A DNA stretch of 64,000 bases from Thermoplasmata archaeon (GTDB lineage: Archaea; Thermoplasmatota; Thermoplasmata; RBG-16-68-12), in the NCBI GenBank assembly GCA_035632695.1, contig DASQGG010000019.1, positions 3,701-67,700 of the forward strand, read 5' to 3'. The notes beneath the pieces are model-generated. The model had not been told where the DNA came from. It saw nothing but the letters and a program-made list of their open reading frames with translations, and made no database searches. Positions 29,341-47,374 of this stretch are shown here, one piece after another. Each line of letters starts with the position of its first letter. Position 1 is the first letter of the stretch. The translations under genes were made by a program, and so were the position numbers.

Positions 29341-29376
29341 AGGGAGACCTCCCGTGGGGAGTCCCGGCTTCGGTTC

Positions 29377-29403: not shown

Positions 29404-29435
29404 CAGACGCGCAACGACCGTCGCCATGGGGCCGC

Positions 29436-31046
29436 TCACAGGTCCGCGGGACCGCGCCCCTTCCGCTCGAACTGCTTCGTGTAGAGCTCCTTGAGCCGCG
29501 CGTACGTGTCCGCATCCTCCGGCCCCTTGTCGTCCCGGACGCGCACGATGCGCGCGAACCGCAGGGCGAAGCCGCTCGGGTAGTGCGGGCTCCGCTGGAT
29601 TTCGTTGTACGCAACCTCCACGACGACCTCGGGGCGGACGTGGATGCCCCAGCGCTCCTCGGAGATTGCAAGGGACTTCATGCGCTGGGTCATCAGCTCG
29701 AACTCCTCGTCCGTGAGGCCCTTGAAGGTCTTCCCGATCATCTGGAACGCGCCCGTGGCCTCGTCGCGGACGGCGAGCCAGTAGTTGGACAGCCAGCCCT
29801 CGCGGCGGCCCGAGCCCCATTCCGCGGCAATGATCGCCAGGTCGAGGTGGTCTGCGGGCTTGATCTTGAACCACTTCTTCCCGCGCTTCCCGACGGAGTA
29901 CGTCGAGCTCAGGGACTTCGCCATGAGCCCTTCGTGACCCGCTTCCATGGACTCCCGGAGGAACGCGACGATCTCATCCCGCGTCCGTGCAATCCGCCGG
30001 GGCGTGCGGACCTCGGGCGGGACGAGCGCCTCGAGCCGGGACCAGCGGTCCCGGTAGGGCGTGTCAATCAGGTCCTGGCCTTCGAGGCTGAGGAGGTCGA
30101 ACAGGTACAGCCGGAGGGGAATCTCGCGCGAGGCCTCCGCGATCCCGTGGACCCGCCGGAACCGGCGCATGAGGTCCTGGAACGGGAGGGGTTTGCCCGA
30201 CCGGTCCACCGCGACCACCTCGCCCTCCAGGAGGAACCGCGTCGACGGAAGGGAGCGGGCGAAGTCCACGATCTCCGGGAGGCTTTCCGTGACGTCCGTG
30301 AGCCGGCGGCTGAAGATTCGCACGGCGTCCCCGACCCGGTGGATCTGGATGCGGGCGCCGTCGAGCTTGAACTCGATCGCGGTCTCGCCTCCGTGCTCTC
30401 GCAGGACCTCCTCGGGGTCGTCCGCCATCTCCGCGAGCATGGGCTTCACGGGGGAGAGGAGGCGCAGGCCCGAGGACCGCAGCCCCCGCACGCCGTCCCG
30501 CAGGGCGATCTCCGCGACCCGGCCCAGGTCTCCCAGGAACATGTGGGCCGTCCGGACCGCTTCGAGGTCCACGCCCGCGGCATCCGCGATCCCTTCCAGC
30601 ATGACTCCTTCGTTCACCCCGATCCGCATCTCGCCGAAGACGATTCGGAGGAGGATGTCGCGATCCGCGGAGGAGACGCGGCCCAGGAGGGATTCCAAGA
30701 GCCGTCGGCGTTCCCGGACGGAATCGGGCCCGTGCGCGGCCGCAATCTCCGCGAACGCCCGGGACACGTCCGCGATCGACAGCGGTTCGGCGAGCAGGGT
30801 GGTCTGGCGCCGGCCCTCGAGGGCGCGACGCAACGTCGCCCAGCCGACGTTCAGGGCGCGTTCGTCGGATTCCGCGAAGATGCGTCCCACGACGAGGTGG
30901 ACCGCGGGTGCGACCTCCTCGGGTCGCAGGGAGCGCAGGAACCCCGCGAGCAACGCGCGTTTCTCGAGGCGCTTCGACGTGGACTCGAGGGCTCGCGCGA
31001 GGTGCGCCAGGGAGGCGAACGGGGTCTCGGATCGTGGGGGCGTCAC
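29436..31046 (-). CDS. lig: ATP-dependent DNA ligase. A GTG start overlaps the stop of the upstream DMT gene (GTGA); the ORF track's Arg-rich N-terminal extension is discarded.
   Basis: The product has the adenylation motif I (EFKLDGARIQIH), motifs III-V (LEGEVV, GLMAK) and KxxG (WFKIKP). It is about 536 aa, typical of archaeal Lig. Confidence 0.9.
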   Translation of the reverse strand: MTPPRSETPFASLAHLARALESTSKRLEKRALLAGFLRSLRPEEVAPAVHLVVGRIFAESDERALNVGWATLRRALEGRRQTTLLAEPLSIADVSRAFAEIAAAHGPDSVRERRRLLESLLGRVSSADRDILLRIVFGEMRIGVNEGVMLEGIADAAGVDLEAVRTAHMFLGDLGRVAEIALRDGVRGLRSSGLRLLSPVKPMLAEMADDPEEVLREHGGETAIEFKLDGARIQIHRVGDAVRIFSRRLTDVTESLPEIVDFARSLPSTRFLLEGEVVAVDRSGKPLPFQDLMRRFRRVHGIAEASREIPLRLYLFDLLSLEGQDLIDTPYRDRWSRLEALVPPEVRTPRRIARTRDEIVAFLRESMEAGHEGLMAKSLSSTYSVGKRGKKWFKIKPADHLDLAIIAAEWGSGRREGWLSNYWLAVRDEATGAFQMIGKTFKGLTDEEFELMTQRMKSLAISEERWGIHVRPEVVVEVAYNEIQRSPHYPSGFALRFARIVRVRDDKGPEDADTYARLKELYTKQFERKGRGPADL

Positions 31047-31990
31047 AGCAGCTTCGGACCATCCGAGCCCGCAGGTTTCAACGTTTCGCCGACGGGGGCG
31101 GACCGTTCCGCGGCCCCGCCGAACACGTACAGGGCGATCGTGGAGAGGACCATGAGGGCGCCTCCCGCGAGCTGTGTCGGGCTCAGGGTCTGGTTCGGGA
31201 AGAGGATGAGGGAGATCAGCACGCCCCACAACGAGGAGGTAGAGAGGATGGAGCCCGCGCGCATCGCGCCAATCCGCCGGAGCGCGTGGTAGAACAGGAT
31301 CGTGAAGCTCGCGACGCCGCCGAACGCGATGACTAGGAGGAGCCAGGCGTCGGGCCCGGATGGAACCAGGGGCGCGCCCCTGACGACCAGGATCGGGAGC
31401 AGAAGCGCGGAGCCCAGGAGGAGTTTCACGGAAATCATGGGCAGGATGCGCGACCGCTTGCTCAGGATCGTGCTCCCGTTGTTGTCCACGGCCCAGAAGA
31501 AGGTGCCCAGGATGAGGAGGAGGTTCCCGCCGAGGTACTGGACCGAGGCGAGGTCCGTGAGGCGGAGCTCCGTGGTCACGATGAACGCGCCCAGCACGAC
31601 GCCTGCCATGGCGAGGTAGCCGCGGGGCGTGAGACGCTCGCCCAGGAACGCGAAGGCGATCACGACGGTGAACACTGCCTCCGAGTTCGAGAGGAGCGCG
31701 GCATTCGACGCCGTGGTGCCGACGAGGCCGTAGTAGTAGATGACCGGGGCCGCGACGGCTCCGGAAACGCTGATGAGCAGGAGGAGGCGCACGTCCCCGC
31801 GCGGGAAGCCGTGGCGTGCGACCGCGGGAACGTACAGGAGCCCCGGGAGGAACTGCGTGTAGAGCGCAATGGTCAAGGGGGGGACGCTGGCTTCCGCGAG
31901 CTTCGAGAGGTTCGCCCAGAGACCGTAGAGGACCGCGGCGACGGAAACCGCAAGGTAGCCGACGACGCGTGCGTCGGCTCGGATGGGCAC
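31043..31990 (-). CDS. EamA/DMT-family transporter (second).
   Basis: It is a 315 aa polytopic membrane protein. It is translationally coupled to the ligase gene. Confidence 0.7.
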   Translation of the reverse strand: MPIRADARVVGYLAVSVAAVLYGLWANLSKLAEASVPPLTIALYTQFLPGLLYVPAVARHGFPRGDVRLLLLISVSGAVAAPVIYYYGLVGTTASNAALLSNSEAVFTVVIAFAFLGERLTPRGYLAMAGVVLGAFIVTTELRLTDLASVQYLGGNLLLILGTFFWAVDNNGSTILSKRSRILPMISVKLLLGSALLLPILVVRGAPLVPSGPDAWLLLVIAFGGVASFTILFYHALRRIGAMRAGSILSTSSLWGVLISLILFPNQTLSPTQLAGGALMVLSTIALYVFGGAAERSAPVGETLKPAGSDGPKLL

Positions 31991-32057: not shown

Positions 32058-33170
32058 ATGCTTTCAAACCAGCTCTACGGAAGGAGGAAAATCCCCGTGG
32101 GAGAACCCGTGCGCGTGCTCCGAGAGGACGGCTCCGTCGACCCCGCGGTCGACCCGCACCTGTCGCGCTCGGACGCCGAGCGGCTGTACCGCGGGATGAT
32201 GCTCGAGCGGATCCTCGACAACCGGATGCTCGCCTTGCAACGCCAAGGACGGATCGGGTTTTACGGTCCCTCGATCGGCCAGGAGGCCGCCATCGTCGGG
32301 GCCGCGATGGCCATGGAAGCCAACGACTGGATCGTGCCCCAGTACCGCGAGCCGGGGGCGGCGCTCGCCCGCGGCATGCCGCTGAAGGAGCTCATCTGTC
32401 AGTTCATGACGAACAGCGGCGACCCGGCCAAAGGCCGCCAGATGCCCTGCCACTACGTGTACCGCAAGGGGAACTTCCTCTCGATCTCCTCGCCCGTGGG
32501 GACCCAGATCCCGCACGCCGTCGGAATCGGGTGGGCCATGAAGCTCCGGAAGGCCCGCGATGCGGTCCTCGTGTACTTCGGCGACGGCGCGACGAGCACC
32601 CCGGACTTCCACGTGTCCATGAACTTCGCGGGCGTGTTCGGCGTGCCCTGCGTGTTCCTCTGCAACAACAACCAGTGGGCGATTTCCCTCCCCGTATCCC
32701 GGCAGACGGCGACGGCCACGCTCGCGGAGAAGGCCCAAGCCTACGGCCTGCCGAGCCGGCGCGTGGACGGCATGGACGCGCTCGCCGTGTACGGCGCCAC
32801 GCGGACCGCGGCGATCGCCGCGCGCGAAGGTCGAGGACCCACTCTCATCGAGTCGCTCAGCTACCGGTTCGGGCCGCACTCCTCGAGCGACGACCCCGCC
32901 CGATATCGGGACGAGAAGGAGGCCGCCGTATGGCAGGCGCGGGATCCCCTCGTCCGGTTCCGCGCGTACCTGGAGGCGCAGGGCGGCTGGAACGACGACC
33001 GCGAGGCCGCATTGGAGAAGGCGATCGGCGACGAGATCACGCAAGCCGTTGCGGAGGCGGAGGCCATGCCTCCCGTCCCCGTCGAGTCGTTCTTCACGGA
33101 GGTCACCCAGGACGTGCCCTGGAACCTGCAGGAGGACCTCGCCGAGGCGAGATCCGTGCCGAGGGGATGA
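32058..33170 (+). CDS. 2-oxoacid dehydrogenase E1 component alpha subunit (pyruvate/branched-chain 2-oxoacid dehydrogenase type).
   Basis: The product has the TPP-binding motif (YFGDGATS...NFAG) and conserved LQRQGRIGFY and YRFGPHSSSDDP. Confidence 0.88.
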   Translation: MLSNQLYGRRKIPVGEPVRVLREDGSVDPAVDPHLSRSDAERLYRGMMLERILDNRMLALQRQGRIGFYGPSIGQEAAIVGAAMAMEANDWIVPQYREPGAALARGMPLKELICQFMTNSGDPAKGRQMPCHYVYRKGNFLSISSPVGTQIPHAVGIGWAMKLRKARDAVLVYFGDGATSTPDFHVSMNFAGVFGVPCVFLCNNNQWAISLPVSRQTATATLAEKAQAYGLPSRRVDGMDALAVYGATRTAAIAAREGRGPTLIESLSYRFGPHSSSDDPARYRDEKEAAVWQARDPLVRFRAYLEAQGGWNDDREAALEKAIGDEITQAVAEAEAMPPVPVESFFTEVTQDVPWNLQEDLAEARSVPRG

Positions 33171-33318
33171 GACCGCGGTCAAGAAAGGGAGCGCCGCACC
33201 GTCATCGCCGCCGCCGAGTGGCGGCAGCGCGGTCGCGCGCGCCCACGAACTCTTCAAGCAGGGCCGGACGTCGGAGGCCCTCGCCCTGGTCCGACCGCTT
33301 GTCCAACGGAAGGACGCC

Positions 33319-33756
33319 GTGGACCCGGAGGCCGCGGCTCTGGCCGCCGCCTGCCTGGGCTCCGAGGGCAAGCACCTGGAGGCCGCGCGGATTGATCAGA
33401 TGCTCTGCGACGCGAACCCCTCCAACCCGCAGGGCTGGAACAGCCTCGGCTTCGATCTCCTGAACGCTGGGGACCTCGAGGGCGCCCTGGGGGCGTACGG
33501 CCGTGCCCTCGAGCTGGAGCCCGGGCGCGCGAGCGCGCACTACAACGTCGCGCGGATTGCGGCGAGAATGGGGAACAAACCTAAGGCCATCGAGCATTTC
33601 GTGAAGGCCGTGGAACTCCAGTCGGACTACGTGGACCGGTTGGACGAGGACCCGGACCTGCGACCCCTGAAAGACGACCCGCAACTCCAGGACCGCCTCC
33701 CGGGCCAAGCCCCGAGCCAGGATCCCTACGCGGAATACTACGCAACGGAGTCGTGA
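33319..33756 (+). CDS. Small TPR-repeat protein inserted between the E1 alpha and E1 beta genes. The start is uncertain (GTG 33319 or ATG 33400).
   Basis: TPR-like helices are present (GWNSLGFDLLNAGDLEGALGAYGRALELEPGRASAHYNVARIAARMGNKPKAIEHFVKAVEL). There is no ATG in frame downstream of the E1 alpha stop before 33400. Confidence 0.35.
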   Translation: MDPEAAALAAACLGSEGKHLEAARIDQMLCDANPSNPQGWNSLGFDLLNAGDLEGALGAYGRALELEPGRASAHYNVARIAARMGNKPKAIEHFVKAVELQSDYVDRLDEDPDLRPLKDDPQLQDRLPGQAPSQDPYAEYYATES

Positions 33757-33762
33757 GCGCAT

Positions 33763-34734
33763 ATGCCGCCGATGACCATGGTGCAGGCCATCAACAACGC
33801 TCTCCGGGAGGAGATGCGCCGCGACGACCGCGTGATCGTCCTGGGGGAGGATGTGGGCAAGAACGGCGGCGTCTTTCGGTGCACGGAAGGCTTGATCGAC
33901 GAGTTCCCCGACCGCGTGTTCGACACGCCGCTCGCGGAGAGCGGGATCATCGGGAGCGCGATCGGGATGGCCCTGTACGGCCTGCGCCCGGTGCCGGAGA
34001 TCCAGTTCATGGACTTCATCTATCCCGCCTTCGACCAGATCGTCTCGGAGGCCGCGAAGATGCGGTACCGGAGCGGCGGACAGTACACGGTCCCCATGAC
34101 GATCCGCACGCCGTACGGCGGCGGGATCCGCGGCGGACACTACCACTCCCAGTCCAGCGAGGCCTACTTCTGCCACACCCCCGGGATCAAGGTCGTCGTG
34201 CCCTCGACCCCGGGCGACGCGAAAGGCCTCCTGACGTCGTCCATCCGCGACCCGGACCCCGTGCTGTTCTTGGAGCCCAAGAAGCTCTACCGCGCGTTCC
34301 GCGAGGACGTTCCGGAGGGCGAGCACACGGTCCCTCTGGGCAAGGCGCTCGTACGCCGCCCGGGCAAGGATGTGTCCTTGTTCGCTTGGGGCTACATGAC
34401 CCAGGTGTGTCTGGACGCGGCCCAAAAGGCCGCGGAGAAGGGCGTCGACGCCGAAGTCGTCGATCTCCGCACCCTGGTCCCCCTGGAACTGGACGCCATC
34501 CTCGCCTCCGTGAAGAAGACGGGGCGCGCGGTGGTCGTGTACGAGGCGCCGCGGACGGGCGGATATGGGGGCGAGATCAGCGCCCTCCTCGCGGAGCGGG
34601 CCATCGAGTACCTCCGCGGGCCCATTGTGCGTGTCGCCGGTTTCGACACCCCGTTCCCGTACGCCCTCGAGGACGTTTACATGCCGAACCCGGACCGCGT
34701 GCTCGCCGGGATCGACAGGGTCATGGCGTTCTAG
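33763..34734 (+). CDS. 2-oxoacid dehydrogenase E1 component beta subunit.
   Basis: A transketolase-like pyrimidine-binding domain is present (VIVLGEDVGKNGGVFRCTEGL, PLAESGIIGSAIGMALYGLRPV), with a C-terminal TK domain. Confidence 0.88.
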   Translation: MPPMTMVQAINNALREEMRRDDRVIVLGEDVGKNGGVFRCTEGLIDEFPDRVFDTPLAESGIIGSAIGMALYGLRPVPEIQFMDFIYPAFDQIVSEAAKMRYRSGGQYTVPMTIRTPYGGGIRGGHYHSQSSEAYFCHTPGIKVVVPSTPGDAKGLLTSSIRDPDPVLFLEPKKLYRAFREDVPEGEHTVPLGKALVRRPGKDVSLFAWGYMTQVCLDAAQKAAEKGVDAEVVDLRTLVPLELDAILASVKKTGRAVVVYEAPRTGGYGGEISALLAERAIEYLRGPIVRVAGFDTPFPYALEDVYMPNPDRVLAGIDRVMAF

Positions 34735-34746
34735 GCGAGCCGACCG

Positions 34747-35340
34747 TCATGCGCGGGCCTTCGTCGATACGTGGGAGAGGCTCCGTGCCACGGCGGCGCG
34801 ACGCATCGCTTCCTCGCCGCCGATCCGGAATACGCACTCCGGGGCACCCGTGGCGCGACACGCTTCCTCAAACCCGCCGAGGCCCTGGCGCCCGGTGAAA
34901 CCGCACAGCAGGCCCACGAGCACCCCGCGGCTGAAGTCGCACACGGGCCGGGTCCGGTGCTCTCCGTTCGTGATGGAGGCGTACGCCTCGAAGGCCATCG
35001 GATCCTTGCACACGAGGACCGCCTTCCCTTTCGCAAAGTCGAGCTCTTGGATTTCGAACGCGCCGAATCCACCTTCCGAATACTCCCGGATCGCACGTCG
35101 GTAGCCGCGCTCGGCCGCGGCCATGACCCCGTGGGCCAGGAGCGCCGCCGCATAGTGGACGCCACCGCGGAATCCCGAGTCGTAGAAGAGGATCGCGGCC
35201 GCGTCGCCCACGACCCCCTCCACGGACGTGCGGAGGCCGTGGAACGAGGTCTCGACGTCGAGCAAGCACATCCGCATCCCCGAATCCAGTAGCTCGCCGA
35301 GCCGGCCCTCGAGACGGATGCGTGGGCGCGAGGAGGGCAT
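34747..35340 (-). CDS. V4R (4-vinyl reductase) domain protein / hydrocarbon-binding protein family. The probable leaderless start is MPSSRPRIRLEG; an alternative ATG lies at 35355.
   Basis: The C-terminus has the V4R hallmark GFEEACRATGAPECVFRI. A TATA-like AAGGGTTATCC (35363-35379, minus) is centred about 27 bp upstream of ATG 35340. Confidence 0.6.
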   Translation of the reverse strand: MPSSRPRIRLEGRLGELLDSGMRMCLLDVETSFHGLRTSVEGVVGDAAAILFYDSGFRGGVHYAAALLAHGVMAAAERGYRRAIREYSEGGFGAFEIQELDFAKGKAVLVCKDPMAFEAYASITNGEHRTRPVCDFSRGVLVGLLCGFTGRQGLGGFEEACRATGAPECVFRIGGEEAMRRAAVARSLSHVSTKARA

Positions 35341-35875
35341 GAGACCCCGACTCAAGGCATCTAGGGATAACCCTTGGCTCCAGGTTATCGGATTCGCGAA
35401 CGGTCGGAGAAAGGAGGAGCGGGCCGGGATTCTGCGGACGGCCCGCGCCCCTCAACGAGACGCCTCCGCCATCGAGCCCGAAGGACCCGAGGCGAGATCC
35501 CGGAGGTCGCTAGCGCCGAGTCGGCCTGCACAAATCACGCCCACCGGTTTGTGCCACTCCTCCACGACCCTACTCCTCCCCGGAGGGGTATCGGAACGAG
35601 GCCATAAAGGAATTCCTCCTCCCTGAGCGCGCAGGGCCGTTACGCGCGCCCAATCGGAAGGACCGTCGAGGGCACCAGGAACACCGCCACGGCCTCGACG
35701 AACTCGGGTGCCATGTACGCCAGGGTGGGCACGCCGACCAACCGCACAACGCGGACGGCTGGCCGAATGGGCTCACGGACCAACGGGGCACCTGAGCGGG
35801 GCTTCATCTCGACGTGTCATCCCGTGCGCACCCGTAGGGGCACACCCTCGAGGGCTGCGCCGAGGCTCCGCGAGC

Positions 35876-35892
35876 GAAGGGTTATTACAATC
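35876..35892 (+). promoter_or_regulatory. BRE/TATA-like element GAAGGGTTATTACAATC upstream of the E2 gene.
   Basis: It lies about 40-50 bp upstream of ATG 35931 and matches the recurrent AAGG(G)TTAT family. Confidence 0.35.
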
Positions 35893-35930
35893 GGGGAGCT
35901 TCGACGCCCCGGCACGGCAAGGCGGTGCGA

Positions 35931-37172
35931 ATGGCCCGTGAGTTCAAGCTCCCCGACATCGGAGAAGGCGTCCACGAAGGCGAAATCACGAAATGGTTCG
36001 TGAAGGAGGGCGACGCCGTCAAGGAGAACGATCCTCTCGTGGAGGTCATGACGGACAAGGTCACGGTCCAGATCCCGTCGCCGGTGACCGGCAAGGTCGC
36101 GGAACGACGCGGCAAGGAAGGGGAGATCGTCCAGGTGGGCAGCACGATCGTCGTCTTCGGCGATGCGGGCGAGCCCGCGGCGATAGGGACGGCCGGGCCG
36201 AGTCCCTCCCGCGGGCCACCGGGTCCGCCGCCATCCCCCTCGGCACCGTCTGCACCGCCCCCGGCGCGCTCCGCCGAGGTCCTCGCGGCGCCTGCGATCC
36301 GGCGTCTCGCGCGCGAACTCGGGGTCGACCTCGCCTCCGTGCGAGGCACGGGGCCCTCGGGACGCATCTCGGAAGCGGACGTGCGAGCGGCGCAGCGCGG
36401 CCCATCACCGGCCCCCACGATCACACCCGCCGGGGCCCCAGGGCCCGCGGTCTCCCTGACGCCAGGGAATCGGGAGGAACGCATCCCCATCCACGGCCTG
36501 CGCAAGCGAATCTACGACAAGATGGCGAAGTCGAACACGACCGCCGCCCACTTCACGTACGTGGAGGAAGTCGACATGAGCCACCTGGTCCAGCTCCGCG
36601 AGCGGCTCAACGAGGCGGCCGCCCACAAAGACGTCAAGCTCACGTACCTTCCGTTCGTCGTCAAGGCGTGCATCGCGGCGCTCAAGGAGCACCCGACCCT
36701 GAACGCCTCCGTGGACGACGAGCACCAGGAGATCGTCGTCAAGGGGTACTACAACGTGGGCATCGCGACGGCGACCGACGAAGGACTCACGGTCACCGTG
36801 GTCCACGATGCGGACCAGAAGGACCTGTGGGCGCTCGCCCGCGAGATCGAGCGCCTGGCGACGGCGGCGCGCGACAAGAAGCTCAGCCTCCAGGACGTCC
36901 AGGGCTCGACGTTCACGATCACATCCCTGGGCAAGGAGGGCGGGATCCTCGCGACCCCGATCATCAACTGGCCCGAGGTCGCCATCCTGGGCATCCACAG
37001 GATCGAGAAGCGACCCGTCGTGCGGGACGACCACATCGTGATCCGCGACATGATGTACGTCTCCTGCTCGTTCGACCACCGCGTGATCGACGGCCACGTG
37101 GGCGCCGCATTCGTGCAGTCCGTGCGAGGGTACCTCGAGCACCCCGCGATGCTGTTCGTGGGTCTCGGGTGA
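35931..37172 (+). CDS. Dihydrolipoamide acyltransferase (E2 component). An alternative GTG start lies at 35925.
   Basis: The product has a lipoyl domain with a lipoyl-lysine (LVEVMTDKVTVQIPSP), an Ala/Pro-rich linker, an E3-binding domain (AAPAIRRLARELGVDLASVRGTGPSGRI) and a catalytic domain with DHRVIDG. Confidence 0.85.
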   Translation: MAREFKLPDIGEGVHEGEITKWFVKEGDAVKENDPLVEVMTDKVTVQIPSPVTGKVAERRGKEGEIVQVGSTIVVFGDAGEPAAIGTAGPSPSRGPPGPPPSPSAPSAPPPARSAEVLAAPAIRRLARELGVDLASVRGTGPSGRISEADVRAAQRGPSPAPTITPAGAPGPAVSLTPGNREERIPIHGLRKRIYDKMAKSNTTAAHFTYVEEVDMSHLVQLRERLNEAAAHKDVKLTYLPFVVKACIAALKEHPTLNASVDDEHQEIVVKGYYNVGIATATDEGLTVTVVHDADQKDLWALAREIERLATAARDKKLSLQDVQGSTFTITSLGKEGGILATPIINWPEVAILGIHRIEKRPVVRDDHIVIRDMMYVSCSFDHRVIDGHVGAAFVQSVRGYLEHPAMLFVGLG

Positions 37173-37314
37173 GCCCTTCGGATCTGAGACGCCGGTCAAG
37201 GACCACTGCACAGAAGCGGCGGTCCGTGCGGGGAATGTCTACGCCCCGCGCCATGGCCCCGCCAAAGGCTAAATAACCCCCGCGCGAATGGTGCACGGGC
37301 TTAGGAGAGATGCG

Positions 37315-38769
37315 ATGCGGTTCTCAGGAATCCTTCTCCCGCTAGTCGTGGCGACCGTCGTGGCCCTCGCCGCGTTCGCCGCTCCGGCTTCCGCCGCAGC
37401 GCCGGCCCCCGTGCCGACGTGGAAGGTGGGGCAATCCGTGGGCTACGGGACGAGCCTGGACCTCGGCAGCCTCGCGGACTCGTACCTCCTGAACGCGATC
37501 CGCAAGGACCCCGGGGCCTACAACATCACGACGATCAACCAGCTGAACGTGACGGGGACCGTGGACTCCTGGGAGGTCGACACGGTCACGAACGTCACGT
37601 CGACATACTACACGCTGGGTTCGCAGTCCGCGAGCGGCGTCAAGCTCCACGTCGCGGTCAACGTGACGCTGAACAACGTCCCCGTGGCCGGTACGTATCA
37701 AGGGACGATCGTCGCCGGCGCGTGCGCGCCACCCACGATCCCCAAGGGAAGCGGCACGGTCGGCGTGAACCTCGACGCCACGAGCCTCGCGGTGACCTGG
37801 GGCGCACGCCGCCTGCAGGTCTCGAACCTGGCCTATGTGAACGAGACGCAGAACGCAGTGGTCAACGCCAGCGTCGCCTTCCAGGGAACCCATCTCCCGC
37901 GGACGGACCTCAACCAGTCCTCCTGTACGTATACGGTGTCCTATGACAACCCCACGTTCACCCTGACCGTGAACACGCTGGATCAGGTGCGGGAGACGTA
38001 CACCCCGACCCTGGACTACTTCAACTTCCCAATCTCGGACAACAAGACTTGGTGGGCGAACACCACGGCGACCCTCGGGGCCACGTTCACCGGGACGATC
38101 AACGAGCAGGGCCTGAGCACCCGGGACGCACACTCCTTCTTCGACAACCTCACGAAGACGTTGGAGACCGCAGGGCTCACGCCGATGGGCCTGGATTCGT
38201 TCCCCATCGATCTCGCCAAGGTGTCCATCCTGGCAGGCCCGAGCTATATCGTGAACAATGGGGTCGTCACGGACTACCCGGTCCCGTCGAACACGCACCA
38301 GCGCGCGATCGCGGCCGTGAAGACCCTCTCGGACGACAACCAGTACCCGGTCTACCTGATCACGAGCGCCTCCTACACGTGCCCGTACACGGGCACGAAC
38401 CTCACCCTGCCCCTGACCTACGCCGCGGTCTACGCACCGGACTTCCCCTCCGCGGGCGCGGGCATGATCGTGGGTTACGACGTCCTCGTGTGCGCGGGAA
38501 CCGTGAGCGTACCGGCCTTTGAACTGACGAACACGAAACCTGCGGACGCCCAGAAGAAGATCGGGCAGACGGAGACGAACTACCAGATCGTCCCGCCCCC
38601 GCAGGGCAATGCCCTCGCGAACTTCTTCCTGGAGTCCCCGTACTGGGGCATCCTCCTGGTCGTCGTCGTGATCGCAGCCGTCGCAGCGGCCCTCCTCGTG
38701 CGCCGGCGCCGGCGGCCCACCCCGGCTCCCCCGCCCCCGCCGCCTTCCGGCGGACCGGGGACCCCATGA
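37315..38769 (+). CDS. Secreted, C-terminally anchored glycoprotein (paralogue of the 26442-27317 product) inserted between the E2 and E3 genes. An alternative start lies at 37288.
   Basis: The product has a signal peptide (MRFSGILLPLVVATVVALAAFAAPASA) and many NxS/T sequons. A C-terminal TM (ILLVVVVIAAVAAALLV) is followed by RRRRR and PTPAPPPPPPSGGPGTP. A TATA-like GGCTAAATAACCC lies at 37268-37285. Confidence 0.5.
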   Translation: MRFSGILLPLVVATVVALAAFAAPASAAAPAPVPTWKVGQSVGYGTSLDLGSLADSYLLNAIRKDPGAYNITTINQLNVTGTVDSWEVDTVTNVTSTYYTLGSQSASGVKLHVAVNVTLNNVPVAGTYQGTIVAGACAPPTIPKGSGTVGVNLDATSLAVTWGARRLQVSNLAYVNETQNAVVNASVAFQGTHLPRTDLNQSSCTYTVSYDNPTFTLTVNTLDQVRETYTPTLDYFNFPISDNKTWWANTTATLGATFTGTINEQGLSTRDAHSFFDNLTKTLETAGLTPMGLDSFPIDLAKVSILAGPSYIVNNGVVTDYPVPSNTHQRAIAAVKTLSDDNQYPVYLITSASYTCPYTGTNLTLPLTYAAVYAPDFPSAGAGMIVGYDVLVCAGTVSVPAFELTNTKPADAQKKIGQTETNYQIVPPPQGNALANFFLESPYWGILLVVVVIAAVAAALLVRRRRRPTPAPPPPPPSGGPGTP

Positions 38770-38832
38770 GGCCCGAATCCGTCCGTCCGCGCGCCCCAAA
38801 GGCATAAAGTCAGGCCCCACCTTCGGCCGTCC

Positions 38833-40236
38833 GTGGCGCGACACGTCGACGTGCTCGTCATCGGAGGCGGGCCGGGAGGCTACCCGGCCGCCATCCGGGC
38901 GGCGCAGCTGGGGAAGAAGGTCCTCCTGGTCGAGCGGCACAAGCTCGGCGGAGAGTGCCTGAACTACGGGTGCATCCCGAGCAAGGCCCTGATTCACGCC
39001 TCCAACGTGGTGAAGGCGATCGAGCGGGCCAAGGAATGGGGGATCGATGCGGGTCCGGCCAAGGTGGACATGGCGCGCCTCCAGGCATGGAAGCAGTCCG
39101 TGGTCGACAAGCTCGTGAGCGGGGTCGCGACCCTGGAGAAAGGGAACGGGGTCGAGGTGGCCTTCGCGGAGGCCTCCTTCCTCGACGCGAAGACCGTGCG
39201 GGCCCGCTACCCGGACGGCCGGACCGAGGACCTCGAGTTCGGGGACGCGATCATCGCGACGGGCGGGAGGCCGTCCGACCTGCCCGCGTTCCGGTTCGAC
39301 GGCAAGCGCGTGATCAGCACGAAGGAGGCGCTCGAGCTTCCCGCGGTCCCCAGGACCCTGCTCGTCATCGGCGGCGGGGTCTCCGGCCTGGAGATCGGCA
39401 CGTTCTACGCGAAGCTCGGGAGCAAGGTGGTCGTGATCGAGCTCCTGGAGCAGCTCCTCCCGGGCATGGACCCGGAGATCGTGCGGGTCGTCGAGCGACA
39501 CCTGCGGAAGCTCGGCGTCGAGTACCATGCGAAGTCCCAGGCCAAGGCGTGGCGGGAGGAGGGCGGCCAGGCCGTCATCGAGGCGGACACGCCGGACGGG
39601 CCGCTCACGGTCCGTGCCGACGTCATCCTGGTCACCGTGGGCCGGCGTCCGAACACGGACGGGCTGAACGCGGACAAGGCGGGGGTCAAGACGAACCCCA
39701 GAGGCTACGTCACCGTGGACAGCCAGCTCCGCACCTCGAACCGCCACGTGTTTGCGATCGGCGACGTCGTCGGCCAACCGTTCCTGGCGCACAAGGCGAC
39801 CATGGAGGGGCTGACCGCTGCGGAAGTCATCGGCGGGCAGCCCGTGGAGGTCGACTATCGGGCGATGCCCTCGGCGATCTTCACGGAGCCCGAGATCGCG
39901 ACCGTGGGCCTGCTCGAGCCCCAGGCTGCCGCGGAAGGGCGGGCGGTCAAGGTGGCCAAGGTCCCCTTCGGCGCGATCGGCCGCGCGCTCACGCAGGGTG
40001 AGTCGGACGGCTTCGTGAAGCTCGTTTCGGACCCGGACTCCAAGGTCCTCCTGGGCGCGGCGATCGTAGGGCCGGAGGCGAGCAACCTGATCAGCGAGCT
40101 CGCCCTCGGGATCGAGATGGGCGCGACGGTCGAGGACATCGCCCTCACGGTCCATCCCCACCCCACGCTGCCCGAAGGGATCATGGAGACCGCGGAGGCC
40201 GCCCTCGGGCAGGCGATCCACGTGCTCAATCGGTGA
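38833..40236 (+). CDS. lpdA: Dihydrolipoamide dehydrogenase (E3).
   Basis: The product has FAD-binding VLVIGGGPGGYPAAIRAAQLG, the redox-active disulfide GGECLNYGCIPSK, an NAD-binding GGGVSGLE and a C-terminal dimerisation HPHPTLPE. Confidence 0.9.
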   Translation: MARHVDVLVIGGGPGGYPAAIRAAQLGKKVLLVERHKLGGECLNYGCIPSKALIHASNVVKAIERAKEWGIDAGPAKVDMARLQAWKQSVVDKLVSGVATLEKGNGVEVAFAEASFLDAKTVRARYPDGRTEDLEFGDAIIATGGRPSDLPAFRFDGKRVISTKEALELPAVPRTLLVIGGGVSGLEIGTFYAKLGSKVVVIELLEQLLPGMDPEIVRVVERHLRKLGVEYHAKSQAKAWREEGGQAVIEADTPDGPLTVRADVILVTVGRRPNTDGLNADKAGVKTNPRGYVTVDSQLRTSNRHVFAIGDVVGQPFLAHKATMEGLTAAEVIGGQPVEVDYRAMPSAIFTEPEIATVGLLEPQAAAEGRAVKVAKVPFGAIGRALTQGESDGFVKLVSDPDSKVLLGAAIVGPEASNLISELALGIEMGATVEDIALTVHPHPTLPEGIMETAEAALGQAIHVLNR

Positions 40237-40976
40237 CCCGAGGCCCAGGGATGCTCGAGACGACCGAGGGGACCGAGACGGAACCGGTCGTGGTCCGGGA
40301 CGCGTGGCTCCTCGATCTCGGGCGCATGGAGTACGGCCGGACCTGGGCGATCCAGAAGGCCCTCGTGACCCGGCGCGCGGAGGACGCGGTTTCGGATGGC
40401 CTCATCCTCGTGGAACACGATCCCGTGGTGACCCTGGGCCGGCGCGGGACCGACGCGGACGTCCTCACCGAGGGGCTGCCCGTATTCCGGGTCGAGCGCG
40501 GGGGCGAGGCGACGTTCCACGGCCCGGGGCAGCTCGTAGGCTATCCCATCCTGAAGCTCCCGGACCGCCTCGACGTGAAACGCCTGGTCACGAATCTCGA
40601 GGACGTCCTCATCGGGACGTGCACGGACTTCGGGATCGACGCCCGGCACGAGGGCCCGGAGCGCGGCGTCTGGGTCAGGACCCGGAAGATCGCCTCCATC
40701 GGCCTCGCGGTCCAGAGGGGCGTCACGTTCCACGGCTTCGCACTGAACGTGACCACGGACCTCTCCTACTTCCTGAAGATCCGGCCCTGCGGCCATGCGG
40801 GAACGATCATGACCTCCATGGCGAAGGAGCTCGGACGGAACGTGGACGTGGAAGACGTCCGCGCGTCCGTGATCCAGCACTTTCAGAGCGTGTTCGGGTT
40901 CACCCTGCGCCTCGTCACGATGGCGGAGTTGCTTCCCGAGGGCGCGCCGACTCCGCCTGGCCCCGGAAGGCCTTGA
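40233..40976 (+). CDS. lipB: Octanoyl (lipoyl) transferase LipB. The start overlaps the E3 stop by 4 nt.
   Basis: LipB/LplA-family motifs are present (ILVEHDPVVTLGRRG, RGGEATFHGPGQLVGYPIL, KIASIGLAVQRGVTFHGFALNV) and a catalytic Lys lies in the KIA context. Confidence 0.8.
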   Translation: MTRGPGMLETTEGTETEPVVVRDAWLLDLGRMEYGRTWAIQKALVTRRAEDAVSDGLILVEHDPVVTLGRRGTDADVLTEGLPVFRVERGGEATFHGPGQLVGYPILKLPDRLDVKRLVTNLEDVLIGTCTDFGIDARHEGPERGVWVRTRKIASIGLAVQRGVTFHGFALNVTTDLSYFLKIRPCGHAGTIMTSMAKELGRNVDVEDVRASVIQHFQSVFGFTLRLVTMAELLPEGAPTPPGPGRP

Positions 40977-41955
40977 GCTGGCGGATCGCCTCGGGGATGA
41001 GCTGGAAGAGGTCGCCCACAATCCCGTAGTCGGCGATCTCGAAGATCGCGGCCTTGGGATCGTTGTTGATCGCGACGATCTTCGCGGCCTCCTGCATCCC
41101 GGCCAGGTGCTGGACCGCGCCGCTGATGCCCACCGCGATATAGAGGCTCGGCCGGACCGTCTTCCCCGTCTGTCCGACCTGGAGGGCCTTGGGCACCCAG
41201 CCCAGGTCGACGGGCTTGCGCGACGAGGCGACGGCGCCTCCGAGGAGGGAAGCGAGCTCCTCGAGCAGGGCGAAGTTCTTGGGATCGCCGAGGCCGAAGC
41301 CGCCGGACACGAGGATCTTCGCGTCGTCAATCTTGCGCGTCTCGTGAGTCTCCGTGGGTTTGAAGCCCACGATCTTTGTGTCGAAATCGGCGGGCTCGAA
41401 GACCACGGTCTCCCGGACGACCTCCCCGGTCCGGGAGCGGTCCCGCGGCGGCATCGGGAACACGTTCCAGCGGGCGGAGGCCATCTGGGGCCGGTGCTCC
41501 TCGCAGTGGATGTGGGCCAGGCTCTTCCCGCCGAACGCGGGGCGGATCATGTCCAGGAAGCCCTCCTCGGTCACGTCGAAGCGCACGCAGTCCGCCGCGA
41601 GGCCCGTGTCGATCGCGGCATGGAGCCGCCCGCCGAGGTCCCTCCCGTTCTTGGACGCGCCGAACAGGATGACCTCGGGGTTGTACTTCCAGCGCAGGGT
41701 CGCCATGACCCTCGTGAACGGGCGGGAGGTGTAGAACTCGAGCCGCGGGTCTTCCACGAGCAGGATACGGTCGCACCCGCACTCGATCGCCTGGCGCGCG
41801 AGCGGCTCGACATTCCAGCCCGGCAGGATGCCCGTGAGGTCCGCGCCCCGCTTGTCCGCGATGCGCCGCGCCTCGCCGATGAGCTGCACGCTCACGTCGC
41901 GGAGGGCCCCGTTGCGGGCTTCCAGGAACACCCACACGCCCCGGTGCTCCGCCAT
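40915..41955 (-). CDS. etfA: Electron transfer flavoprotein alpha subunit (EtfA/FixB). The start is trimmed to MAEHRGVWVF.
   Basis: An N-terminal ETF domain and a C-terminal FAD-binding domain are present (ILVSGGFGLGDPKNFALLEELASLLGGAVASSRKPVDLGWVPKALQVGQTGKTVRPSLYIAVGISGAVQHLAGM). Confidence 0.85.
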   Translation of the reverse strand: MAEHRGVWVFLEARNGALRDVSVQLIGEARRIADKRGADLTGILPGWNVEPLARQAIECGCDRILLVEDPRLEFYTSRPFTRVMATLRWKYNPEVILFGASKNGRDLGGRLHAAIDTGLAADCVRFDVTEEGFLDMIRPAFGGKSLAHIHCEEHRPQMASARWNVFPMPPRDRSRTGEVVRETVVFEPADFDTKIVGFKPTETHETRKIDDAKILVSGGFGLGDPKNFALLEELASLLGGAVASSRKPVDLGWVPKALQVGQTGKTVRPSLYIAVGISGAVQHLAGMQEAAKIVAINNDPKAAIFEIADYGIVGDLFQLIPEAIRQLKAFRGQAESARPREATPPS

Positions 41956-41981
41956 GGGCGGCGGAGAGGGATGCGCGTGGG

Positions 41982-42800
41982 TCACGGGATCACCCGGTCC
42001 CGTCGCAGGGCCTCGAGGAGCAGGGAGACCGCGATCGTGGGCTCCTCCTGGAAGATCTGGCCCTGCCGGCTCGGGAGCTGGACCGTGTCGACCTTGGCGA
42101 CGATCGTGGGCGAGCCTTTGAGGCCGATCTGGGACGGTTCGAGTCCGAGGTCCGCCGCGCTCCAGTGCTGGACGAGCCCGCCGCGCTTCACACGGACCTT
42201 GCCCGTCAACGTGGGCTGGCGCGGCTTGTTGCATCCGAAGTCCACGGTGACGACGCACGGCATCGGGGCCTCCCAGGTCTCGGCCCCGTCTTCGATCATC
42301 CGGACCCCGCGCACGCGGCGGTCCACGATCTCGACGCCGGAGCAGTACGTGATCTGAGGGATGTCCATGTGCCCCGCGATCCCGGGGCCGACGTGGCCCG
42401 TGGACGCGTCCGTGGTCTCCTCGCCGCACAGGATGAGGTCCACGCCGCCGATCTTCTCGATGGCTCGCTCCAGGGTGAGCGCCGTCGGCACCGTGTCCGA
42501 ACCGCCGAGGTTGCGGTCCGTGACCAGGAACCCGCGGTCCGCGCCCATCGCGATGGCCCGCTCGAGGCTCTCATCGAACGACGTGGGCCCCATGGAGAGG
42601 ACGATGATCTCGCCGCCGTGCTGCTCCCGGAGCAGGAGGGCCATCTCGAGGGCGTTCTGGTCGGGCGGGTTGATCTCGCTCGGCACGCCGACCCGCTTGA
42701 GCGTCTTCGTGACGGGGTCGACTTGGAGCTCCTGGGCCTTCGGCACCTGCTTCAGGCACACCACGATCCGCAGCCCCTGCTTCGCGGCGGTGTCCGTCAC
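41982..42800 (-). CDS. etfB: Electron transfer flavoprotein beta subunit (EtfB/FixA).
   Basis: It has an EtfB fold (RIVVCLKQVPKAQELQVDP...IIVLSMGP...DLILCGEETTDASTGHVGPGIAGHMDIP). It overlaps the fixC stop by 4 nt. Confidence 0.85.
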   Translation of the reverse strand: MTDTAAKQGLRIVVCLKQVPKAQELQVDPVTKTLKRVGVPSEINPPDQNALEMALLLREQHGGEIIVLSMGPTSFDESLERAIAMGADRGFLVTDRNLGGSDTVPTALTLERAIEKIGGVDLILCGEETTDASTGHVGPGIAGHMDIPQITYCSGVEIVDRRVRGVRMIEDGAETWEAPMPCVVTVDFGCNKPRQPTLTGKVRVKRGGLVQHWSAADLGLEPSQIGLKGSPTIVAKVDTVQLPSRQGQIFQEEPTIAVSLLLEALRRDRVIP

Positions 42801-44092
42801 ATGGATCGCGCTCCCTTGACGAGGTCCATGAGGAGAGCGAGCTTGGACACCCCGGAGGCGTTGGCTTCCTGCAGGACCGTTTCCAGCAAGCGCTCGCGCG
42901 GCGCGCCGTCCACGCGGTACATCCGCTCCGCGAGGTCGATGAGCAGACGCGGGTACACGTCGAACAGGCGCTCGTTCTTCAGGTACAGCGGGGCGCGGGA
43001 GAAGGTCTCGAGGTCCGTGAGGACGCGGCGGTCCCGCAGCCGCCGTTCGTAGGCCGCCAGGTTGGCCGCGCTCATCCCGCCCGCGACCCGCGCCGCCTCC
43101 GCGGCCTCGCCCGCCGCGATCCCCGAGGCCATCGCGAGGTCCACGCCCCGGAACGTATAGCCGTTGTTGATCAGGAAGCCGGCGCTATCGCCGACGACGA
43201 GGACACCGTCCCCCACGAGCTGGGGCATCATGCGGCGCCCGAGTTCGGGCACCAGATGGGCGCTGTACTCCGCGAGCTTGCCGCCCTTCACCAGCTTCTG
43301 GACCGAGGGATGCATCCGGAACCTCGTCTGGACGTCCTGGACCTCGACCTTCTTGCGGGCCAGATCCTCGGACGAAACGACGAGGCCCAGGGAGAGGGAC
43401 GACTTGTTCGTGTACAGGAAGCCGCCACCCCGGAGGCCGAGGGACGCGTAGCCCGCGTACACGAACGCGGCCCCTTCCTTCTCCCCCAGACCGAAGCGCT
43501 CCTGGATCGTCTCCGCGGGGAGCTCGATCGTCTCCTTGACGCCCACGCTGACCTCGCGGGGCTCCAGGTCCGCCTTGAGCCCCGCCTTGCGCACGAGGGT
43601 CGAGGTCGCGCCCTCCGCGATCACCACGAGGTCCGCGGACACCCGGTCGTTCGGCGCCACGAAGACGCCCCGGACGCGGCCGTCCGCCCGCCACAGGTCA
43701 TCCACGCGGATCCCCGTGACGAGCATGGCCCCGGCCTCCTCCGCCTTCTTTGCGAGCCACGCGTCGAACCTGGGCCGCAGGGCGGTGAAGCTGGCCGCCT
43801 TGCCTTCCCCGAGCTTGGGCGAGTCGAACCGGATTCCGAGGGAGGCGCCCTCCGTCAGGAAGGCGAGGTTCTCCTGGGTCACGAGTCGCTCGACGGGACA
43901 GTCCTTGGCCCAGTCCGGGACGAGGTCGAAGAGCGGCCAGGCGTAGATGCGCCCGCCGAACATGTTCTTGGAACCCGGCGCGCGGCCGCGCTCCACGAGC
44001 AGGACGGAGAACTTCTTCCGGGCCAGGGTGAGCGCCGCGGCGGAGCCGGCGGGGCCCGCGCCCACGACGATTGCGTCAAAACGCTCCGCCAT
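42797..44092 (-). CDS. fixC: FixC-type ETF:quinone oxidoreductase-like flavoprotein. The start is trimmed to MAERFDAIVVGAG.
   Basis: FAD-binding DAIVVGAGPAGSAAALTLA is present. It is about 431 aa and sits in the conserved position upstream of etfB-etfA, as in fixABCX loci. Confidence 0.8.
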   Translation of the reverse strand: MAERFDAIVVGAGPAGSAAALTLARKKFSVLLVERGRAPGSKNMFGGRIYAWPLFDLVPDWAKDCPVERLVTQENLAFLTEGASLGIRFDSPKLGEGKAASFTALRPRFDAWLAKKAEEAGAMLVTGIRVDDLWRADGRVRGVFVAPNDRVSADLVVIAEGATSTLVRKAGLKADLEPREVSVGVKETIELPAETIQERFGLGEKEGAAFVYAGYASLGLRGGGFLYTNKSSLSLGLVVSSEDLARKKVEVQDVQTRFRMHPSVQKLVKGGKLAEYSAHLVPELGRRMMPQLVGDGVLVVGDSAGFLINNGYTFRGVDLAMASGIAAGEAAEAARVAGGMSAANLAAYERRLRDRRVLTDLETFSRAPLYLKNERLFDVYPRLLIDLAERMYRVDGAPRERLLETVLQEANASGVSKLALLMDLVKGARSM

Positions 44093-47344: not shown

Positions 47345-47374
47345 TTATGGCGGGGTCCCCGTGTTCCCACGCGA

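Follow-up and report, generated by a model that had tools for sequence, protein, structure and literature searches.

How are the genes of a 2-oxoacid dehydrogenase complex organized when unrelated genes lie between them? The question is raised by a stretch of 64,000 nucleotides (the window) from contig DASQGG010000019.1 of a Thermoplasmata archaeon, in which the genes for the four subunits of such a complex (E1alpha, E1beta, E2 and E3) are found in the company of the lipoylation genes lipB and lipA, and are interspersed with genes for a tetratricopeptide repeat (TPR) protein, a minus-strand V4R-domain protein and a secreted glycoprotein. The original prediction, made from the letters of the sequence, read this cluster as one operon that had been remodelled by the insertion of three unrelated genes. 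As a whole, the cluster is quite probably better explained as a conserved catabolic neighbourhood of several transcription units, which holds a structured RNA in the gap between E1beta and E2 and owes its gene order to a tandem duplication. The RNA is the only item that may be new, the cluster being otherwise composed of known kinds of genes.

The window has a GC content of 64-70% (the genome is elsewhere given as 67% GC), it contains housekeeping genes of archaeal type (exosome Rrp41/Rrp4, SBDS, proteasome alpha, FtsZ and KaiC-like ATPases), and the nearest relatives of its E2 protein, at 70-83% identity, are found in Thermoplasmata metagenome-assembled genomes (MAGs) from soil and sediment; its origin is a Thermoplasmata archaeon of soil or sediment. 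The gene map, which was built from third-position GC content (GC3) together with Pfam and NCBIfam matches, confirms the claim that all four subunits are present and intact with their expected motifs. E1alpha (32058-33170, plus strand), the thiamine pyrophosphate (TPP)-dependent 2-oxoacid decarboxylase subunit, matches PF00676 with 308 bits and has a TPP motif of the GDG(X)~26NN type (GDGATSTPDF...NNN), while its score against the pyruvate dehydrogenase-type model TIGR03181 is 410.6 bits at a cut-off of 411.35. E1beta (33763-34734, plus) contains the Transket_pyr and Transketolase_C domains (PF02779, PF02780) and is 85-93% identical in relatives. The dihydrolipoyl acyltransferase E2 (35931-37172, plus) consists of a single lipoyl domain (Biotin_lipoyl, PF00364) with its lipoyl lysine in EVMTDKVTVQ (TDK), an E3-binding domain (E3_binding, PF02817) and a catalytic domain (2-oxoacid_dh, PF00198) with the DHRVIDG motif; a second open reading frame (ORF) considered for E2, 35993-37276, has no Pfam match, and the real E2 frame is 35925/35931-37172. 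Finally, the dihydrolipoyl dehydrogenase E3 (38833-40236, plus) scores 527 bits against TIGR01350 (cut-off 409) and carries the redox motif CLNYGC as well as the His-Glu pair of HPHPTLPE at its C-terminus. Every subunit thus has both the domains and the motifs of its type, and on this evidence a lipoate-dependent 2-oxoacid dehydrogenase complex is completely encoded. To judge by the beta-oxidation-type genes nearby, the complex is probably one of the branched-chain or pyruvate type; among the metabolic neighbours in the window are a 3-hydroxyacyl-CoA dehydrogenase, two enoyl-CoA hydratases and an acyl-CoA synthetase.

The arrangement of these genes is not peculiar to this genome. Two samples of relatives were compared, each contig only within what it covers: 13 genome loci, and ~120 metagenome contigs that were pulled out solely with a 21-mer from the core of the RNA described below, so that the second sample is unbiased as to protein genes. 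The order E1alpha-TPR-E1beta / E2 / E3-lipB / electron transfer flavoprotein (ETF) set / FixX-lipA-E1alpha2, in which E1alpha2 is a second E1alpha gene, is common to both samples, giving more than 130 related contigs with the same layout in total. The small TPR protein that had been noticed between E1alpha and E1beta is indeed there (33181-33756, plus, with TPR_1 and TPR_2 matches in a frame open from 33049 to 33756), and its gene occupies the same place in every relative covering that region. Also widespread is a minus-strand unit of RNA, membrane protein and V4R genes, which separates E1beta from E2 in nearly all relatives. The V4R gene next to E1beta in the window (V4Ra) is found only in the sub-lineage nearest the window, which is the one with the long form of the RNA, and the glycoprotein gene is patchy, occurring in several sub-lineages at 31-59% protein identity. 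Three genes unrelated to the complex do therefore lie between its subunits, as had been proposed; their recent insertion is not borne out, since the layout is clade-wide and the TPR gene is universal where covered.

The gap between E1beta and E2, which had been described as 584 bp of non-coding DNA, measures 575-590 nt and holds a conserved structured RNA together with two promoter-like boxes. Conserved DNA was suspected at this place because the E1beta-E2 spacer of every relative had spurious ORFs that yielded the same peptides time and again. A core of ~55 nt (plus strand, GCACAAATCACGCCCACCGGTcTGTGCCACTCCTCCACGACCCnACTCCTCCCC) is invariant in 12 loci, even though the flanking proteins are only ~70% identical, and is followed on the plus strand by ~19 variable nt and then by CCATAAA (TTTATGG on the minus strand), a heptamer that does not vary in 10 of these 12 loci and is largely retained across the wider set. 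The core 21-mer occurs once in the window, where none would be expected by chance, once per related locus covering the spacer, and in at least 120 metagenome contigs; the core is near-invariant in every copy recovered. On every contig that includes the flanks, the RNA sits between the E1beta and E2 genes and points away from E2; usually ~150 nt separate its core from the E2 start (580-1,545 nt in ~10 contigs). One contig, L084, has two inverted copies, at 2060-2158 (plus) and 2493-2591 (minus), with E2 on both sides, an arrangement that probably arose as a palindromic artefact of assembly. The copy in the window is of the long form, with 175 nt (35407-35581, minus strand), and the order on that strand is a transcription factor B recognition element (BRE)/TATA-like box at 35600-35616 (GGAATTCCTTTATGGCC; CGAATCGTTTTATGG in relatives), a spacer of ~21 nt, and the RNA beginning with GGGGAGGAG.

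The copies fall into three size classes (96-101, 126-130 and 170-181 nt), which differ only in the arm P5, and share a common fold consisting of a 13-bp closing stem P1 (GGGGAGGAGnnGG / CCnnCUCCUCCUU), a short adjoining P2, an invariant hairpin P4 and the variable P5, with a single-stranded GGAGGAGU exposed in the junction. P5 is a hairpin of 6-7 bp in the short forms and an arm of ~92 nt in the long ones, and among the 22 forms of middle or long size it folds as a single long hairpin in 19, even though their sequence similarity averages only 0.57. Compensatory changes are seen at the inner end of P1 (UC/GA, UU/AA, CA/UG and UC/GG), standard pairs amount to 97.9% as against 45-58% when the pairing partners are slid, the folding z-scores are -2.5 and -2.6, and the sense strand is the more stable one in 61/61 sequences. 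A covariance model built from the short forms (R1) finds every copy and misaligns the long forms, so that P5 and P1 of the latter were analysed by direct folding and anchored comparison. Weighing against the fold are the short forms, in which most pairs never vary, so that covariation is weak (2 pairs changed on both sides), and pair 15-84, which is mismatched in 15 of 39 sequences. On balance, conservation and folding establish, at the level of the sequence, that the gap holds a conserved structured RNA with a TATA-like box of its own.

This RNA belongs to no family against which it was compared. Rfam 15 (4227 families) gives no match in the window at gathering scores and none at E <= 10 in 35300-35960, and for the related locus L003 it returns two trivial matches only (E = 1.3 and 9.1); ARAGORN finds no tRNA match for the RNA. 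Its identification as a tRNA, signal recognition particle RNA, RNase P RNA, C/D-box RNA or known ribozyme was set aside for want of an ARAGORN or Rfam match. A kink-turn was likewise considered and rejected: the GA...UGA of P4 is out of kink-turn register, and P4 is no kink-turn because its stem is a perfect 8-bp helix. A scan of outgroup loci (L013, L014, DPANN and bacteria) with R1 gave no copy.

What the RNA does is suggested by what follows it in other genomes. Directly downstream in nearly all relatives (9269-9655 on the minus strand of locus L001, 9338-9760 on the minus strand of L003, and ~85 other loci) is a gene for a four-helix membrane protein of ~130 amino acids that has only weak similarity to DUF2127. 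Its start codon lies 16-38 nt past P1 in 77 of 91 unique downstream sequences, most commonly at 17-18 nt, and a purine-rich, Shine-Dalgarno-like run is found between P1 and the start in 59 sequences. In these relatives the RNA is accordingly a conserved structured domain in a 5' leader, with TATA box, RNA, purine-rich site and start codon in series. The 3' strand of P1, CUCCUCC, is complementary, as read from the sequences, to the RNA's own 5' GGGGAGGAG, to an internal GGAGGAG and to the downstream purine-rich site; when paired with the 5' end it would leave the downstream ribosome-binding site free, and in the alternative state it would pair with that site itself. Because CUCCUCC is complementary both to the purine-rich run and to the 5' end of the RNA, the layout is that of a translational switch, and a cis-acting switch of this kind is the most likely function of the RNA, although we would put it at a little short of an even chance. 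Two observations speak against this assignment. The RNA is intact without a downstream membrane-protein gene in at least two lineages, namely that of the window and that of L029/L166, where nothing follows on that strand, and in the window no good ribosome-binding site is found after the RNA. There is no trace of the membrane-protein gene in the window, and because of its deletion the RNA now precedes V4Ra, at a distance of 66 nt. L029/L166 likewise lack the gene, and L181, for which tblastn gives no match, seems to carry a degenerating copy of it.

The strongest alternative to a leader switch is a stand-alone small RNA, acting in trans or as part of a ribonucleoprotein, whose link with the membrane-protein gene is one of position only. 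The RNA is kept intact in L029/L166, where no gene follows it, and in the window, from which the membrane-protein gene is gone, and a role in trans or on its own fits these genomes better than that of a pure leader; the RNA's own BRE/TATA box, its near-invariant core, in the manner of a stable RNA, the exposed GGAGGAGU in the junction and its single copy per locus point the same way. Against this stand the start codon at 16-38 nt in 77 of the 91 unique cases with a ribosome-binding site directly after P1, the absence of a T-run terminator between the RNA and the membrane-protein start, the fixed position of the RNA at one locus, and the fact that no target can be named. We regard a stand-alone RNA as unlikely on this evidence, if still a serious competitor of the translational switch.

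A bolder version of the leader model, in which the RNA is a new archaeal riboswitch class sensing a metabolite linked to 2-oxoacids or lipoate (acyl-CoA, lipoate, octanoate or a redox cofactor), would have it switch on the small membrane protein and the stand-alone V4R sensor, divergently from E2. The gene content beside the RNA, a DUF2127-like membrane protein and a V4R protein, points to no candidate ligand, and this proposal, taken jointly with the pairing of E1alpha2 with E1beta considered below, is speculative and improbable in its full form. Translational riboswitches in which P1 competes for the ribosome-binding site include the SAM-II and preQ1 classes. The RNA resembles them in its 5' leader position in most relatives, in its near-invariant junction with a peripheral stem of variable length, and in the complementarity between the 3' strand of P1 and a downstream purine-rich site. 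Unlike those classes, it has no Rfam match and no known ligand, persists in some genomes where no gene follows it, and is restricted to a single archaeal clade and a single locus. The riboswitch classes we know of in archaea are those for TPP and fluoride.

The boxes that accompany the RNA and the subunit genes bear directly on whether the cluster is one operon. Promoter statements made here rest on AT-rich boxes and gene spacing, both read from the sequence. The window has few AT-rich 8-mers (96 positions in 64 kb), and within the cluster they are located where archaeal promoters would be expected. E2 is preceded by a TATA-like box at 35879-35889 (plus strand, GGTTATTACAA) that includes such an 8-mer, the box TTATTACA being located 42-49 nt before the E2 start in the window; its equivalent, GCAAAccGTTATAA or GTTAAG, recurs ~55 nt before E2 in 62 of the 86 unique upstream sequences. 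The glycoprotein gene has a TATA-like box at 37269-37277 (plus, CTAAATAAC; tabulated for the window as CTAAATAA), with aatTTATAAGTA at the same place in relatives. A BRE/TATA-like box at 38797-38809 (plus, CAAAGGCATAAAG) lies 24 nt before the GTG of E3, which would imply a leaderless E3 mRNA, and the corresponding CAAAGGCATAAG is located at -37 in 39 of 53 unique upstream sequences, including those of relatives without the glycoprotein gene. TATA-like boxes are also present upstream of lipA (15/16 sequences) and, at about -25, upstream of FixX (16/16). No AT-rich box is found upstream of lipB in any of 38 sequences or upstream of the TPR gene in any of 15.

Because of these conserved boxes and the spacing of the genes, the cluster is best read as several putative transcription units. 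The first would comprise E1alpha-TPR-E1beta; a divergent unit would start with the structured leader RNA, followed in relatives by the small four-helix membrane protein and then by V4R; further units would be E2, the glycoprotein gene, E3-lipB, FixX and lipA-E1alpha2; and V4R-FixC-ETFbeta-ETFalpha would form a minus-strand unit. This division is weakened somewhat by the incomplete occurrence of the E2 and E3 boxes (72% and 74% of upstream sequences) and by its dependence on AT-rich boxes in a genome of 67% GC, in which read-through between units is possible.

The competing view of a single, recently remodelled and still co-transcribed operon with E3 and LipB coupled by a 4-nt overlap does account for several features: the subunit genes are all on one strand in canonical order, spacing is tight in E1alpha-TPR-E1beta and in E3-lipB, and the occurrence of the V4R and glycoprotein genes varies from relative to relative. 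Comparison with related genomes nevertheless reveals a shared layout rather than a remodelled one. The TPR gene must be old because it is found throughout the clade, nearly all relatives have a minus-strand unit between E1beta and E2, and conserved boxes precede E2, the glycoprotein gene and E3, those of E2 and E3 even where the glycoprotein gene is absent; separate promoters for the genes of the complex were among the findings that the original prediction itself had named as refuting it. The proposed coupling of E3 and lipB fares no better. The junction reads aatcgGTGAccc, with cgGTGAccc at the E3 stop and no ATGA; GTG 40233 is the sole start that would overlap the stop, giving GTGA. The conserved LipB start, from which the relatives align, is ATG 40251, 14 nt past the E3 stop, and the NCBI protein HYM38746.1 (241 amino acids) begins there too. 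In relatives 4-15 nt separate the E3 stop from the lipB start, with no promoter box between, so that the lipoylation enzyme is tied to the complex by lipB adjoining E3 and not by translational coupling through a 4-nt overlap. Taken together, these observations make a single remodelled operon improbable.

The contiguous four-gene E1alpha-E1beta-E2-E3 operon of Thermoplasma acidophilum is the natural reference for such a view. Its complex, described by Heath et al. in 2007 (FEBS J 274:5406, cited in PMC8305020), is reportedly active on branched-chain 2-oxoacids and pyruvate. The two systems, from the same archaeal class, share the four subunit types and their order, a heterotetramer-type E1, and an E2 with a single lipoyl domain and an E3-binding domain. 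The window departs from the contiguous arrangement in having three genes and a minus-strand RNA unit between the subunits, with boxes before E2 and E3; unlike T. acidophilum, it has apparent promoters of their own for E1, E2 and E3, LipB and LipA within the cluster, and a second E1alpha. Lipoylation in T. acidophilum relies on a two-part LplA/LplB ligase that scavenges lipoate, and the organism has no lipoyl synthase (PMC10332631).

The start of the TPR gene requires separate comment. An ATGA is present at the E1alpha stop (33167-33170), and its ATG is out of frame with the TPR gene. In relatives the TPR protein starts with ATG or GTG followed by [P/A]-K-K-G, with two exceptions, ACG in L009 (~7774) and CTG in L029 (~4000); in the window the frame has no ATG, GTG or TTG at the position of the conserved M-x-K-K-G, reading GCG GTC AAG AAA GGG, and conserved coding begins at K-K-G (33181). 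Because the canonical start codon is missing at the conserved position, the NCBI record HYM38740.1 is a truncated protein of 145 amino acids (33319-33756) beginning at GTG 33319. The segment upstream of that GTG is coding, since its frame is open and it is 91% identical to L001 from residue 22 onward. The assembly may be off by 1 nt here, or translation may re-initiate at a codon that is not canonical. A frameshift fusion of E1alpha and TPR was considered and rejected: in every relative a new start codon comes within 3-9 nt of the stop, and the sequence shows no evident slippery site. More generally, second cistrons a few nucleotides past a stop often have no canonical start at the conserved position, and the E1alpha2 alignment begins at ACG in six relatives (L003, L009, L083, L103, L115 and L147); near-cognate re-initiation, mis-set starts and assembly errors are possible causes.

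The missing TPR start, the vanished membrane-protein gene and the lack of a second E1beta in the window for E1alpha2 might suggest that the cluster is decaying in this genome and that parts of it are pseudogenes, but this is very improbable given that the reading frames are all open with a strong codon bias (GC3 0.84-0.96), that the N-terminal TPR segment is open and conserved, that two relatives likewise have no canonical TPR start, and that E1alpha2 follows lipA in every relative reaching that far. Hardly more credible is an interpretation of the conserved block in the gap as a DNA-level element, a divergent promoter or regulator-binding region for E2 and the minus-strand unit: the block lies between two divergently oriented promoter-like boxes and V4R sensor proteins are encoded beside it, yet it is situated downstream of the TATA box that faces it, its 55 invariant bases and variable-length helical arm that keeps its pairing despite sequence change are unlike a protein-binding site, and G-U pairs make the same strand the more stable one in all 61 sequences.

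With the several-unit organization favoured, the lipoylation genes can be considered. The gene after E3 (40251-40976, plus) encodes, by its family scores and residues, a true LipB octanoyl(lipoyl)transferase and not an LplA ligase: the protein of 241 amino acids scores 209.4 bits against NF010925 (cut-off 155) and 169.9 bits against TIGR00214 (cut-off 83.55), has PRK14345 as its best NCBIfam LipB model, and carries the catalytic Lys in RKIASIG and the catalytic Cys in IRPCGH (PCG). No LplA model is listed in the curated-family search with this protein. The lipoyl synthase LipA (45278-46174, plus; TIGR00510, 381 bits, cut-off 310), with both its auxiliary-cluster CX4CX5C and its radical-SAM CX3CX2C motif (CTRGCRFC), is encoded 4.3 kb downstream of lipB and not 5 kb as originally estimated. 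Between them the two enzymes build the cofactor on E2, LipB by transferring octanoyl and LipA by inserting two sulfurs. With LipB above two equivalog cut-offs and LipA above one, and the catalytic motifs in place, the claim that a de novo lipoylation route is encoded is upheld; because a true LipB and a true LipA are nearby, the route is encoded beside its substrate. No LplA-type domain is found among the window ORFs scanned (~50 of ~57 in 64 kb).

Such a combination is not without precedent. Starting from LipB of Ferroplasma acidarmanus as the query, LipB was found in nine archaeal species, always together with LipA and E2 (Borziak et al., 2014; PMC3904984), and LipB/LipA combinations in archaea have since been surveyed further (Tanabe et al., 2023; PMC10332631), so that the occurrence of LipB, LipA and E2 in archaea, Thermoplasmata included, is already published. 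Because acyl carrier protein (ACP) is generally absent, the octanoyl donor in archaea is unclear (PMC10332631). The present locus agrees with these surveys in the co-occurrence of LipB, LipA and E2, in a LipB that is separable from LplA and LipM, and in the donor question; whereas they record presence or absence per genome (PMC3904984, PMC10332631), the window has the genes physically tied, as E3-lipB and lipA-E1alpha2. Acyl-CoA as the octanoyl donor of LipB is a reasonable guess and nothing firmer, suggested because the 3-hydroxyacyl-CoA dehydrogenase, the enoyl-CoA hydratases and the acyl-CoA synthetase are neighbours. A comparable bacterial neighbourhood is the mycobacterial dlaT-lipB-lipA, in which lipoylation genes likewise stand beside their E2, but ACP is available and the gene order is another.

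The gene order of the window may itself go back to an older operon. The start of E1alpha2 (46178-47290, plus), an orphan E1alpha paralog that scores above the TIGR03181 cut-off with 427.7 bits and is 55% identical to E1alpha, lies 3 nt past the lipA stop, and the lipA-E1alpha2 pair is kept in every relative reaching that far. In a neighbour-joining tree E1alpha and E1alpha2 form sister groups inside the clade, with the outgroup E1alpha sequences all outside and closer to E1alpha2. A distant locus, L013, from the MAG 'Thaumarchaeota archaeon SubAcS15-15', has a contiguous lipA-E1a-E1b-E2-E3-lipB operon with gaps of 15-150 nt. It shares the same six genes with the window, with lipA by E1alpha and lipB by E3 and protein identities of 38-62%, and differs from it in having no TPR, V4R or glycoprotein gene, no ETF set, no second E1alpha and no RNA element. 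The order ...E3-lipB / lipA-E1alpha2 could have arisen by tandem duplication of such an ancestral lipA-E1a-E1b-E2-E3-lipB operon, after which lipA would have been lost from the first copy and E1b-E2-E3-lipB from the second, the ETF set then being inserted. This scenario appears the most economical one for the gene order, and no more than that; it is not proven. Because the window contains no second E1beta, E1alpha2 would need as its partner either the single E1beta or another encoded outside the window; in the former case one E2/E3 core may serve two substrate specificities.

The genes between lipB and lipA were passed over in the original gene inventory, which was correct in the genes that it listed and missed E1alpha2, a second V4R gene (V4Rb, 44146-44748) and the ETFalpha/beta-FixC-FixX set. 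This set consists of a FixB-like ETF alpha subunit (40915-41985, minus; NCBIfam ETF-alpha families, 64-88% identity in relatives), whose 3' end overlaps that of lipB convergently by 62 nt, a FixA-like ETF beta subunit (41982-42800, minus; PF01012 and NCBIfam), a flavoprotein resembling FixC and ETF-quinone oxidoreductases (42797-44092, minus; 415 bits with PRK10015 and 394 bits with PRK10157 (FixC), each below its cut-off, with an ETFQO_UQ-bd match below the Pfam cut-off), and, on the opposite strand and beyond the V4Rb gene, a FixX-like 4Fe-4S ferredoxin (44897-45220, plus; FixX as best NCBIfam match, 53 bits, below cut-off). All four best matches are to FixABCX families, and all are below the curated cut-offs. 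The set could carry electrons from acyl-CoA dehydrogenases acting on the products of the complex; no acyl-CoA dehydrogenase gene was identified in the window.

The minus-strand V4R-domain protein reported after E1beta is present as V4Ra (34747-35340, or to 35355, minus; 197 amino acids), a diverged paralog that scores 28.3 bits with Pfam V4R at a gathering cut-off of 31 and is assigned by a family-profile match to V4Rb (hhalign probability 97.9%, E = 3e-13). V4Rb (minus strand) itself matches PF02830 with 66.9 bits (cut-off 31). Both proteins have ~200 amino acids and share a PVC...C...C cysteine pattern, and no further domain, be it DNA-binding or ATPase, was detected in either. A sensor role would follow from their family: V4R sensors such as the redox regulator MsvR of methanogens and the effector-binding domains of XylR, DmpR and MobR have the V4R domain and conserved cysteines in common with the window proteins. 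In contrast to these, the latter have no attached DNA-binding or ATPase domain, V4Ra is below the Pfam cut-off, and the similarity of V4Rb to the MobR sensor domain and to the C-terminal region of MsvR is weak and below cut-offs.

Between E2 and E3 lies, as originally described, a gene for a membrane-anchored secreted glycoprotein (37315-38769, plus), recognized by a signal peptide, a C-terminal transmembrane helix followed by RRRRR and a proline-rich tail, and an excess of NxS/T sequons (11 as against 5.1 +/- 2.0 in shuffles). It is identical to the 'hypothetical protein' VEY12_01185 (484 amino acids) of a 'Thermoplasmata archaeon' third-party annotation MAG, and its family of 61 members, all unnamed and without Pfam domains, is confined to the clade. 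An AlphaFold2 model is all-beta, with a predicted local distance difference test score (pLDDT) of 78 and most of the ectodomain at 80-97, and contains a large sheet of strands of 20-25 residues; searches of the PDB with this model gave only a generic beta-barrel likeness and no specific relative, and PDB sequence searches with V4Ra and the glycoprotein returned no match. An independent Logan assembly gives the same V4R protein (197 amino acids), E2 (413) and secreted protein (484). A further ORF of 291 amino acids at 26442-27317 (plus) encodes a predicted secreted protein with a C-terminal anchor like that of the glycoprotein (W, transmembrane helix, RRR and proline-rich tail), and this anchor may be a recurrent surface-anchoring module in the organism.

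Beyond the cluster, an EamA transporter gene (31043-31990, minus) lies upstream of E1alpha. Two stretches of ~2 kb each, 10177-12398 and 29340-31043, are without an ORF of the usual third-position GC signature; the former terminates at 12313-12348, where the window is at its most AT-rich, and the ~1.7-kb spacer between the two EamA genes is also found in relatives. Downstream of E1alpha2, genes for a small DUF6487 protein (47324-47584) and, on the minus strand at 47594-50718, for an isopropylmalate/isocitrate-type dehydrogenase and a two-subunit aconitase-family dehydratase (LeuCD-like) were noted.

In substance the original observation largely stands, although several of its details are wrong: its lipoylation reading is right but already known, and its 'remodelled operon' is mostly not supported. 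Because the enzymes are textbook ones and archaeal LipB and LipA have been catalogued, its claim adds little by itself. What the locus does indicate is that an abundant soil Thermoplasmata clade encodes an entire lipoate-dependent dehydrogenase and, physically linked to it, the genes that build its cofactor. One soil Thermoplasmata genome reconstruction is reported to have no pyruvate or 2-oxoglutarate dehydrogenase complex (PMC9038741), though it may be of another order than that of the window. Also of use is the fixed place of LipB beside E3 among acyl-CoA-metabolising genes, which makes this a convenient system in which to test acyl-CoA as the donor. To our knowledge, structured regulatory RNAs are very scarce in archaea, and the RNA in the E1beta-E2 gap, strongly conserved, without an Rfam entry, plausibly built as a switch and represented by over 130 naturally occurring sequence variants, is ready for probing and reporter work.

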